Shown: positions 40,725-42,929 of the stretch, in pieces | How positions within the stretch are numbered: the stretch's first letter is position 1 | Layout of the letters: each line of letters starts with the position of its first letter | Origin: Escherichia phage SHEFM2K | Strand: one strand, 5' to 3' | Sequence record: PQ390715.1 | Length of the DNA stretch: 64,000 nt | Notes under the pieces: generated by a model | Databases searched by the model: none | What the model was told of the DNA's origin: nothing | What the model saw: the letters and a program-made list of their open reading frames with translations, nothing else | Position numbers and translations under genes: made by a program

Positions 40725-42929
40725 TTAACTGTTTCTCTCACCTTGAGTGTTTTCAGAGATAGTTCTTAGATAGTTATTTGTCTGTTGCACGGCAGATAGA
40801 GATTGCTCATTAACATCAGCAAGTTTTTTAAGTAACTCTTTCATGTCTTCTGATATTGTGGCATTATTATTAGCATTTGCCATACTACTACCACTATTTA
40901 TCATCGCTTTCATGGCCTCATAATCGTCCGGTTCAGCTTGAATTGGTGGTTCATTTGGACCCCATGCTGATTTATCAAAAGTTTTTGGAGTTATGGTAAC
41001 ATATGGTGCAACATGTTCAGATTTTTCGATTCTCGCAGTTGCTCTTGGCTTATTTTCAAGACCACTACTAATAAGTTTTTCAGCAACTGATTCATCAAGG
41101 GGTTTTGGTTGTTTAAAGTTTCTACTTGAATTCCATTTTAAAAAACCATCAAATGAACTAGAAATATAATCACCAAATGAATTCATTTTTTCTTCAAAAT
41201 AATTATTAACTTTTTCTGCACCATCGGTAACAGAATTGTTTTCTACTTTTACTTTGTCGTCTGATCCACCAAACCAACCTTTAACAGAATCCCAAAGTTT
41301 ACCAGGAAGATCCATTAGGTTATTCATAAAGCTATCAAATGCTTCTGAAACTTTATTATATCCACTACCAAAAATTTCAGTACCTAACCCTTCTAACCAC
41401 TGCTCAAACTCACCACCAATCCTATCCAAATACGCAACTGCATCTTTCGCAATAGGAACCAAACCAAAACCATCAAGTGCTAACTCTCCGATAAATTCCC
41501 ATGCACCATCAGTACGGTCTGCAATATCAGTAAGGTAATCCGCAATAGAATTTTGTGTATCTGCATACATTTTATTAAATGGTTCAGTAAATTCTTTACT
41601 AATCCATCTATTGAATCTATCAGTGAATTGTGTTAGTTTATCTGCTGGTTGACTCTTAGGATCATTAATCGCAGCTTCCATATCAAGTAGTTGTTGGTTG
41701 AAGGTTGCTGCCGTAGTGTTTCCTAATTGTATCTGATTTAATAAATCTTGCTTTATTAGTTCTTTGTTCTTTTTAACAAATTCCAATTGTTGACGGCGAA
41801 TTTCTTGTGAATCAGTAACACCACTACGTACCAAGTTCTCACCTAAATCAGCAAATTGGTTCAGTACTGGAGTCAATAAATCATCTGGTACTCCACCAAT
41901 AGTTAAACGATGTGAAATTAAACGTAGAAAATCTGCACCAGCATCACCCATACTGGCAGCAGCTTCGTTAAATGCTTTTGATGTTGCAACTGCTGCTTTA
42001 CTAGATAATCCAGAATAGTTTTGTAATGCGATTTGCATTGAACGTGTGTCTAATGATTTATCTAAGTTTTGTGTTTTATTTAATAGTGCATCAACTGACT
42101 CACCCATACTTTTACTGAACTTAGTCATACTCATGATAAACTGTTCAGTACTTTTTGCTTGATCCATACTACGTAACATTTCTCTTCCACCAAATTGCTT
42201 TTGGAATTTAATATTACGTGCAGTTAAATCAGTTAATGTTTTTTGAGAAACACCATATAAACCTAATTGATTTTGTGCTTGTTGCACAGTACCCAATAAT
42301 TTACCAAATGTAGAAACACCATCACCATATGCACCATCTAATTGTGCAACAACGGCACTATGAGTTTGTAATGCTTCACCAAATGCATCAATACTCATCA
42401 TTGATGCACCAGCACCTTTTAATATGGAGCCGTAACCTTCAGATAGAGCGACACCAGCACTGTTTATTCTATTATAAACTTCAAGCTGTGCATTTAACAC
42501 ATTATAAACTGCTAAACCAGCGTCAGCAACCAATTTGAATGCAGATGCTGCTGCACCAACTGGACCTGGGATCATTGCTAATGAACCAGCAAATGAAGAT
42601 GCACTCATTCCTAGTGAGTTTACAACATTGCTAACGTTTGCAGACGTACTCATCATAGTTTTGCCGACATTCGATACTTCAGATGATAATGATTTGAATA
42701 TTTTTCCAAATTCTTTACCATCATCAGCTTTGTTATTTGTTCGAGAGCCACGGTTTCCAGTACTTGATGAATTACTTCCATTACGTTTTCCACTTTTAGA
42801 ACCGGATTTCTTTCTATCATTTTTTATATTTTCAGCCAATAACTCACGAATAGCACTCAAACTATCGTTGTTATCTTTAGTTTGATTAACCAACTGCTGG
42901 AGTAGGTAATCACTTGTATTTCCAGCCAT
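40725..42929 (-). CDS. tape-measure-like helical protein
   Basis: 734 aa; Ala/Ser/Gly/Asn/Gln-rich, predicted largely helical; directly upstream of and co-transcribed with the portal gene, an atypical position; could instead be an ejection/internal protein. Confidence 0.4.
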   Translation of the reverse strand: MAGNTSDYLLQQLVNQTKDNNDSLSAIRELLAENIKNDRKKSGSKSGKRNGSNSSSTGNRGSRTNNKADDGKEFGKIFKSLSSEVSNVGKTMMSTSANVSNVVNSLGMSASSFAGSLAMIPGPVGAAASAFKLVADAGLAVYNVLNAQLEVYNRINSAGVALSEGYGSILKGAGASMMSIDAFGEALQTHSAVVAQLDGAYGDGVSTFGKLLGTVQQAQNQLGLYGVSQKTLTDLTARNIKFQKQFGGREMLRSMDQAKSTEQFIMSMTKFSKSMGESVDALLNKTQNLDKSLDTRSMQIALQNYSGLSSKAAVATSKAFNEAAASMGDAGADFLRLISHRLTIGGVPDDLLTPVLNQFADLGENLVRSGVTDSQEIRRQQLEFVKKNKELIKQDLLNQIQLGNTTAATFNQQLLDMEAAINDPKSQPADKLTQFTDRFNRWISKEFTEPFNKMYADTQNSIADYLTDIADRTDGAWEFIGELALDGFGLVPIAKDAVAYLDRIGGEFEQWLEGLGTEIFGSGYNKVSEAFDSFMNNLMDLPGKLWDSVKGWFGGSDDKVKVENNSVTDGAEKVNNYFEEKMNSFGDYISSSFDGFLKWNSSRNFKQPKPLDESVAEKLISSGLENKPRATARIEKSEHVAPYVTITPKTFDKSAWGPNEPPIQAEPDDYEAMKAMINSGSSMANANNNATISEDMKELLKKLADVNEQSLSAVQQTNNYLRTISENTQGERNS

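Follow-up and report, generated by a model that had tools for sequence, protein, structure and literature searches.

What function has a large helical protein that is encoded next to, and upstream of, the portal gene in a jumbo phage? The question is raised by a locus of Escherichia phage SHEFM2K (sequence record PQ390715.1), from which a stretch of 64,000 nucleotides (nt), referred to here as the window, has been analysed. A preliminary description of this DNA pointed to a 734-amino-acid (aa) open reading frame (ORF) adjoining the portal gene, a placement with which the ORF list and a Portal_T4 match agree (coordinates of all features are collected in Table 1), and offered two readings of its product: a tape measure protein (TMP) in an unusual position, or a large ejection or internal head protein. 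The first of these has gained support from profile matches, from distant members of the protein family and from synteny with baseplate hub genes, and no positive evidence has come forward for the second. Most likely, the 734-aa protein acts as the tape measure of the tail in a jumbo myovirus of the Rak2-like/121Q type.

A virion protein with profile-level similarity to tape measures

The ORF is a single one, with an ATG start and a product of 79.715 kDa (calculated). That it is a real gene and not a chance ORF is confirmed by its conservation in 73 phage records (32-100% identity in a protein search), by a match to phrog_14121 over its full length in a PHROGs search, and by a mass that equals that of a known virion protein. 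The 10 kb of the window at 36000..46000 are 99.3-99.8% identical to the Escherichia jumbo phages 121Q, PBECO4, phAPEC6, JP4 and others (genus Asteriusvirus, the 'Rak2-like' phages), and the protein itself is 100% identical to 121Q gp597 and to its PBECO4 counterpart. Gp231c of phAPEC6, 79.72 kDa, has been detected in purified virions by electrospray ionization tandem mass spectrometry (PMC7247149); the equality of the masses identifies it with the 734-aa protein. The homologues CBB_251 and PA5oct gp335 have likewise been detected in virions by mass spectrometry (MS). On the strength of these published proteomes, the protein is a component of the mature virion.

Most records call the gene 'hypothetical' or 'virion structural protein', and no tape measure protein is named in the published analyses of Rak2-like (121Q/PBECO4/RaK2-type) phages that were consulted. 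The GenBank record of phage pEa_SNUABM_12 does name its homologue 'putative tape measure protein', and close homologues are called 'pore-forming tail tip protein' in UniRef and in the fEgEco12 record, a label that seems to have been assigned automatically and that is not taken up in the fEgEco12 paper. A 'gp701 tape measure' named in the paper on phage Atu_ph07 was not located at 455-490 kb of the corresponding GenBank record.

The similarity to tape measures emerges when the family, and not the single protein, is searched. (What this means operationally is that a hidden Markov model (HMM) built from an alignment of 22 homologues, 34-81% identical, was run against 1.84 billion representative proteins with a threshold of E≤1e-3.) The 573 proteins matched fall into two classes. 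Proteins of the first class are collinear with the N-terminal domain of the family (profile positions ~50-340); their full-length members are 578-1546 aa long, with a median of about 735. Nearly all of the distant matches tested, mostly of this class, also match phrog_14121 (56 of 58), and subsets of them match, in addition, many PHROG families designated 'tail length tape measure protein', several such families being matched by each of P0084, P0097, P0100, P0111, P0114 and P0123. In P0084 (976 aa), the family domain occupies 28-340, and tape measure families are matched over 324-975. By BLASTP it matches the SHEFM2K protein (E=4e-12 over ~386 aa) as well as gp14 of Paenibacillus phage Fern (E=2e-15), a siphovirus TMP of the TP901/PhageMin_Tail type that serves as positive control: a Pfam search finds PF10145 in it (1e-59), and the genes of the major tail protein and of two small proteins precede its own.

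Proteins of the second class align with profile positions ~450-615, often as several tandem matches, at library-wide E values of 1e-9 to 1e-7 for P0125, P0127, P0131, P0155, P0167, P0169 and P0173. All seven members of this class that were tested are unambiguous TMPs (their PHROG E values reach 1e-135), and what the family profile matches in them falls inside the TMP-aligned regions. Because the second class matches the C-terminal half of the SHEFM2K protein and members of the first class such as P0084 link its N-terminal domain, both halves connect to recognised TMPs, the C-terminal half directly at the profile level and the N-terminal half by way of proteins that also carry TMP sequence. A separate profile of the N-terminal domain matches PA5oct gp335 (798 aa) with E=4e-18.

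The region that matches the tape-measure repeat regions is also where the tryptophans of the protein are found: all seven (at 442, 477, 511, 546, 552, 599 and 656) lie within aa 442-656 (~40962..41606 of the window), six of them inside aa ~440-615, and the first four are spaced 34-35 residues apart. A similar Trp-containing helical repeat region is found in canonical siphovirus TMPs of the kind exemplified by Fern gp14, and the family profile matches such proteins. Unlike them, the SHEFM2K protein is without PF10145, no tube and chaperone genes precede its gene, and its phage has a contractile tail.

Several weaker similarities carry little or no weight in this assignment. The N-domain profile finds the TMP chains 9b45_a, 8v3w_B and 9h4p_QG in the PDB, but these matches are weak, stand among others to coiled coils of chemoreceptors, spikes and haemagglutinins, and involve only the least specific profile positions 20-110, and so are not counted as evidence. 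Foldseek comparison of the predicted structure with BFVD returns matches at weak scores; among those that carry a name, almost every one is a 'tape measure' or a 'minor tail' protein. Matches of both kinds are discounted because helical sequences of biased composition cross-match. The N-terminal domain was also considered as a divergent PF10145, on the basis of a second BLASTP segment and an hhalign probability of 66%; a further hhalign comparison did not confirm this, and the idea was dropped. PolyX tracts, described as a hallmark of TMPs (PMC13585406), are too unspecific and were not used.

Hub synteny and tail length

The stop codon of the gene and the ATG of the portal gene, the next minus-strand ORF, are 11 nt apart, and inspection of the junction revealed no terminator-like site between the two genes. 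Co-transcription with the portal gene, which the preliminary description took as given, is for this reason plausible, judged from the layout of the DNA. Beyond the portal gene, the minus strand continues with a 75-aa gene and genes for an acidic 286-aa virion protein, an S77 prohead protease, a 371-aa scaffold-like protein and the major capsid protein. On the other side, a gap of 130 nt separates the gene from a divergently transcribed gp26-like baseplate hub gene.

This arrangement recurs in relatives. A gp26-like gene divergent from a block of homologue, portal and head module is found in phages of the 121Q type, in CBB, in PA5oct and in five of five metagenomic loci, the last with distant homologues of 834-1149 aa. 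Vibrio phage 2.275.O is differently organised: genes for a gp27-like hub protein, the homologue (619 aa) and a gp26-like protein follow one another on one strand, in a block divergent from the portal and head genes, and here the homologue gene is plainly part of a hub operon. The gp26-like gene adjoins the homologue in every context examined and is its invariant neighbour; linkage to the portal gene is therefore conserved, but not obligatory, and is a trait of a clade. The position that had seemed unusual is indeed one in which the portal gene follows directly; at the same time a gp26 homologue is adjoined, as in T4, where gene 29 is part of the 26/51-27-28-29 hub cluster (an order echoed in the Vibrio phage, where the homologue also stands directly after a gp27-like gene), and the arrangement is clade-wide.

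The absence of recognisable sheath and tube genes from the window was correctly noted in the preliminary description: in phAPEC6, the sheath gene (gp277c) and the tube paralogues (gp273c-275c) are ~62 kb away. The latter adjoin the sheath gene and match PHROG tail-tube families. No long helical protein was found around these phAPEC6 sheath and tube paralogue genes, and apart from a gp27-like hub protein the hub region encodes no other protein of comparable size. Homologues of T4 gp29 are found in Straboviridae only. Because of these two circumstances, the bare surroundings of sheath and tube and the restricted occurrence of gp29, excluding the 734-aa protein leaves the genome with no other TMP candidate.

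Protein length and tail length may correspond in the manner of a ruler, to judge from three relatives. The RaK2 tail of 128 nm (PMC3622015) and a homologue of 719 aa yield 1.78 Å per residue; for CBB (123 nm, PMC5259590; 722 aa) and PA5oct (136 nm, PMC3936114; 798 aa) the ratio is 1.70 Å per residue. Across the family as a whole, lengths of 578-1546 aa are built around a conserved N-terminal domain, as would be expected of rulers. The tail of T4 is ~100 nm long, and gp29, with 590 aa, thereby also comes to about 1.7 Å per residue.

T4 gp29 (phrog_1283), a subunit of the baseplate hub that determines tail length, resembles the SHEFM2K protein in further respects: both are long virion proteins, mostly helical and with a hydrophobic segment, and both belong to T4-related phages with contractile tails. 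The two genes differ in what follows them, the portal gene in the one case and the genes of gp48 and gp54 in the other (T4 order 27-28-29-48-54).

Location in the tube lumen, copy number, determination of length and a role at the membrane can be inferred for the 734-aa protein, by analogy with gp29 and other TMPs, along the following lines. A few copies of the extended helical protein would be anchored through their conserved C-terminus in a central hub composed of a gp27-like trimer, a gp5-like spike and the gp26-like protein. Tube subunits would polymerise around the TMP up to its conserved N-terminus, where the tube would be capped, so that protein length would be translated into tail length at about 1.7 Å per residue, which for 734 aa amounts to about 125 nm. 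When the sheath contracts, the protein would leave the tube ahead of the DNA, and its Gly/Ala-rich stretch (aa ~100-145) may aid passage of DNA across the cell envelope.

Contrary observations and other roles

A number of observations weigh against the tape measure assignment. By itself, the 734-aa protein matches no Pfam TMP model and no PHROG TMP family, and neither PF10145 nor another Pfam TMP model is present in it or in the 58 distant family members. Searches of PDB sequences with the single protein and with the family profile return only designed or generic helical bundles, and matches to solved TMP chains do not rise beyond coiled-coil-level scores; Foldseek comparison of the low-confidence predicted structure with the PDB yields nothing below E=1. 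In hhalign, the family and the Fern TMP give a result that is at best suggestive (66%, 51 columns) and otherwise negative. A relationship to gp29 finds no support either: hhalign assigns a probability of 8% to the family alignment against T4 gp29 and of below 1% to the family and N-domain alignments against a 7-member gp29 alignment, and HMM searches are negative. Homology to gp29 is rejected on each of these grounds, and with a profile-profile probability below 1% the protein ought not to be classed among the gp29 homologues; as far as sequence comparison can tell, its family is distinct from gp29 and has no Pfam model. The position of the gene directly upstream of the portal gene and head module is atypical for a TMP gene (it is co-oriented with these genes in the window and in most relatives, though always with the gp26-like gene adjoining). 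The tail length ratio comes from three negative-stain values, of similar lengths and from different laboratories. Helical proteins of biased composition also attract one another in searches, and part of the similarity could be non-homologous.

The proteomic record is contradictory, with a single peptide (1.4% coverage) of the protein in phAPEC6 virions vs 29 unique peptides (50% coverage) of CBB_251, a high figure where 3-6 copies per virion are to be expected. In the part of the CBB virion proteome table that was consulted (PMC5259590, Table 4), CBB_251 is listed with its 29 peptides, and the sheath protein CBB_204 and the portal protein CBB_252 are not listed; on that basis, peptide counts from these gel slices are unreadable as abundance. 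The argument that low MS abundance supports a tape measure was dropped, being contradicted by the CBB data.

The high CBB count is one of the facts that would suit a quite different kind of protein, an internal head or ejection protein that is packaged through or near the portal, is perhaps part of an inner body and is injected with the DNA, its likeness to TMPs being one of helical composition. Such a protein might well be encoded directly upstream of the portal gene and head-assembly module, as is the case in nearly all relatives, and phAPEC6 heads do hold an inner body of 91 x 18 nm to which no composition has been assigned (a finding that also counts among those unfavourable to the tape measure assignment). 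The PHROGs category of phrog_14121 is 'head and packaging'; the function given there, however, goes no further than 'virion structural protein', and the family has probably been mis-binned. Bona fide TMPs are matched by the family profile at E 1e-9 to 1e-7 in an unbiased search, and some members of the family carry canonical TMP sequence. No match to Pfam phiKZ_IP or to another head or internal-protein family was found in Pfam and PHROGs. The Vibrio homologue lies in a hub operon, divergent from the portal gene, with the gp26-like gene as invariable neighbour; the single phAPEC6 peptide is unfit for a major inner-body component; and the genome would be left with no TMP candidate at all. A role in the head is accordingly quite unlikely, even if these points disfavour it weakly only.

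A protein that is related to TMPs and occupies the tail lumen or hub need not itself set tail length: it might be a hub scaffold, or a membrane channel ejected ahead of the DNA, with another, unrecognised protein acting as ruler. The 'pore-forming tail tip protein' names in UniRef and fEgEco12, the hydrophobic Gly/Ala-rich stretch, the tight linkage of the gene to hub genes and the lack of homology to T4 gp29 would all be accommodated. In known systems the pore-forming and ruler roles reside in one protein, as in T5 pb2, a tape measure that is also fusogenic and muralytic, and a channel function would be more a refinement of the tape measure assignment than a rival to it. (The SHEFM2K protein and pb2 are both long helical tail proteins with hydrophobic stretches, a likeness drawn by name and description only, and the former is without a muralytic domain in Pfam and PHROGs.) The surroundings of the tail genes show no second long helical virion protein that could serve as the ruler, the ratios of 1.70-1.78 Å per residue fit a ruler, and the hydropathy of the Gly/Ala-rich stretch (Kyte-Doolittle maximum 1.44, at aa 117) remains below the usual transmembrane threshold. 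That the protein does not determine length is unlikely.

With the 734-aa protein taken as the tape measure, linkage of its gene to the portal gene might still reflect something more than shared descent. It might signify a functional coupling (the protein might, for example, act on both sides of the head-tail junction, as ruler of the tube and as part of a portal-axis inner body or plug for the DNA end), or else a class of ruler that has no relation to gp29 and arose independently within the clade; such an interpretation has very little probability.

Protein anatomy, neighbouring genes and implications

The all-helical character noted in the preliminary description is borne out by an AlphaFold2 model based on the 22-sequence alignment, with 73% helix and no strand, albeit at the low confidence that is common for extended helices (mean predicted local distance difference test score, pLDDT, 49); the best-modelled part is aa 150-420, with pLDDT of 60-86. 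The designation as a low-complexity protein applies to a limited part of it. Truly low-complexity sequence is confined to aa ~40-75, a tract that differs in length and composition between relatives (poly-G, poly-N), and is followed by Ser/Ala/Gly-rich sequence to ~145, within the first fifth of the protein, which includes the mildly hydrophobic Gly/Ala-rich stretch; the remainder is of ordinary composition. Conservation is strong at the two ends and good in the N-terminal domain. The C-terminal half is more variable and rich in insertions and deletions until the extreme C-terminus, where Q716, R722, I724, N727, T728 and R732 are invariant in the 22-member alignment; more distant family members end similarly (..NT....N). 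The protein has no cysteine, and a Pfam search found no enzymatic or any other domain in it. Its 11 [LIV]-x-E tripeptides are a count that is uninformative on processing by the prohead protease.

Table 1. Features of the tape measure candidate and of surrounding genes in the 64,000-nt window
Feature	Coordinates	Strand	Basis
Gene of the 734-aa all-helical virion protein	40725..42929	minus	ORF list, phrog_14121 full-length match, mass, helical AlphaFold2 model
Conserved N-terminal helix (aa 1-39, MA..SDYLLQQ..ND.LS.R.LL)	42813..42929	minus	Invariant or near-invariant columns of the 22-member alignment; predicted helix 6-39
Low-complexity Ser/Gly/Asn/Lys tract (aa ~40-72)	42714..42812	minus	Columns 38-85 of the 22-member alignment; lowest sequence entropy
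Conserved family N-terminal domain (aa ~75-345)	41895..42707	minus	Shared with most of the 573 distant matches; N-domain alignment
Tape-measure-repeat-like segment (aa ~440-615)	41085..41612	minus	Profile positions ~450-615 match TMPs
Conserved C-terminal helix and tail (aa 694-734, ..Q..N.LRTISENT...RNS)	40728..40850	minus	Invariant columns of the 22-member alignment
Portal gene (gp20-like), directly downstream of the 734-aa gene	38974..40713	minus	Pfam Portal_T4 E=5e-112; phrog_213
Possible late promoter CATAAATA, 1 mismatch from the T4 late-promoter motif TATAAATA	42962..42969	minus	33 nt upstream of the ATG of the 734-aa gene
gp26-like baseplate hub gene	43060..43896	plus	Pfam T4_baseplate PF12322 E=3e-24; phrog_150
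Small conserved gene (69 aa) after the gp26-like gene	43896..44105	plus	phrog_18291
gp55-like late sigma factor gene	48629..49468		
749-aa gp27-like central baseplate hub (121Q gp588 / phAPEC6 gp240; phrog_11190)	50657..52906	plus	AlphaFold2 and Foldseek; Vibrio synteny
gp5-like spike (OB fold, beta-helix, C-terminal lysozyme), hub partner	52920..55583	plus	Pfam Phage_base_V, DUF2345, Phage_lysozyme; phrog_13211

A sequence that departs at one position from the T4 late-promoter motif, CATAAATA, precedes the gene of the 734-aa protein and is possibly its late promoter. Exact copies of the motif, TATAAATA, occur eight times in the window, a total not above chance; six of the eight stand 17-48 nt upstream of the starts of late or structural genes (35851 and 37060 on the minus strand; 43018, 44907, 49557 and 55596 on the plus strand). 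A gene for a gp55-like late sigma factor is present in the window.

The small gene that follows the gp26-like gene has counterparts of similar size, in the same position, in the Vibrio phage and in metagenomic loci. Farther along lies a baseplate cluster with genes for a gp53-like protein, a 749-aa hub protein, a gp5-like spike with lysozyme, a free lysozyme, and gp25-like and gp6-like proteins. According to its structural model (pLDDT 66), the 749-aa protein is the central hub protein: Foldseek relates it with probability 1.00 to T4 gp27 (1k28_D, 2z6b_D), Mu gp44 and VgrG, and also, at the same probability, to the hubs of phi812, 80alpha and P1. On account of this gp27/VgrG hub fold the protein was rejected as a competing tape measure. 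Compared with T4 gp27 it is about twice as large, with a ~50-residue N-terminal helix and long insertions modelled at low confidence, and phrog_11190, a 'virion structural protein', is filed under 'head and packaging'. No solved structure of the family of the 734-aa protein was found in the PDB, and the hub is without a sequence match there.

The free lysozyme (162 aa, 55620..56108, plus strand) matches the last ~160 residues of the spike profile (phrog_13211 positions 727-885), an apparent duplication of the lysozyme module of the spike. Between the gp25-like and gp6-like genes, phage JP4 has a gene for an HNH endonuclease (L001 40091..40855) where the window has only ~100 nt (56519..56621); this looks like presence or absence of a homing-endonuclease insertion among near-identical phages. 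Two paralogous virion proteins of 199 and 229 aa are encoded at 23191..23790 and 23805..24494 (plus strand), both matching phrog_9326. They are taken to be the counterparts of RaK2 ORF106/107, to which they are likened by size, order and neighbourhood only; a tail tube protein was proposed for ORF106/107 in the RaK2 paper (PMC3622015), a role that the tail-tube matches of phAPEC6 gp273c-275c, next to the sheath gene, put in question for this pair.

Two other proteins have been considered in connection with tail length. In phage SP27 the label 'phage tail length tape-measurement protein' (L011 1..1013) is attached not to the homologue of the 734-aa protein but to the counterpart of the 371-aa coiled-coil gene that lies between prohead protease and major capsid protein (35897..37012, minus strand; scaffold-like, phrog_10922), and is almost certainly a misannotation that arose from coiled-coil similarity. 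Gp323c of phAPEC6 (L016 3525..6221, outside the window) is a virion-associated protein of 898 aa and 98.6 kDa, represented by 4 peptides, that belongs to phrog_3573, a family of unassigned function. Its record notes similarity to a protein of Pseudomonas phage EL, and its gene stands beside those of anaerobic ribonucleotide reductase, an odd place for a structural protein. It was considered as a rival TMP and set aside, its gene lying among nucleotide-metabolism genes and its PHROGs function being unassigned.

The arrangement that prompted the question is a trait of a clade of distant relatives of T4 and not a peculiarity of the SHEFM2K genome. The function proposed for the 734-aa protein is an ordinary one, and leaves understanding of how tails are measured unchanged; it is the position of the gene that is unusual, and it is conserved. 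For the 121Q/PBECO4/RaK2-type jumbo phages, assignment of the TMP would fill a gap in annotation. It would also supply a synteny rule by which the gene of the ruler may be recognised in uncultured relatives (a gp26-like gene, divergent from tape measure, portal and head module), and the range of lengths in the family would allow tail lengths to be predicted from sequence.

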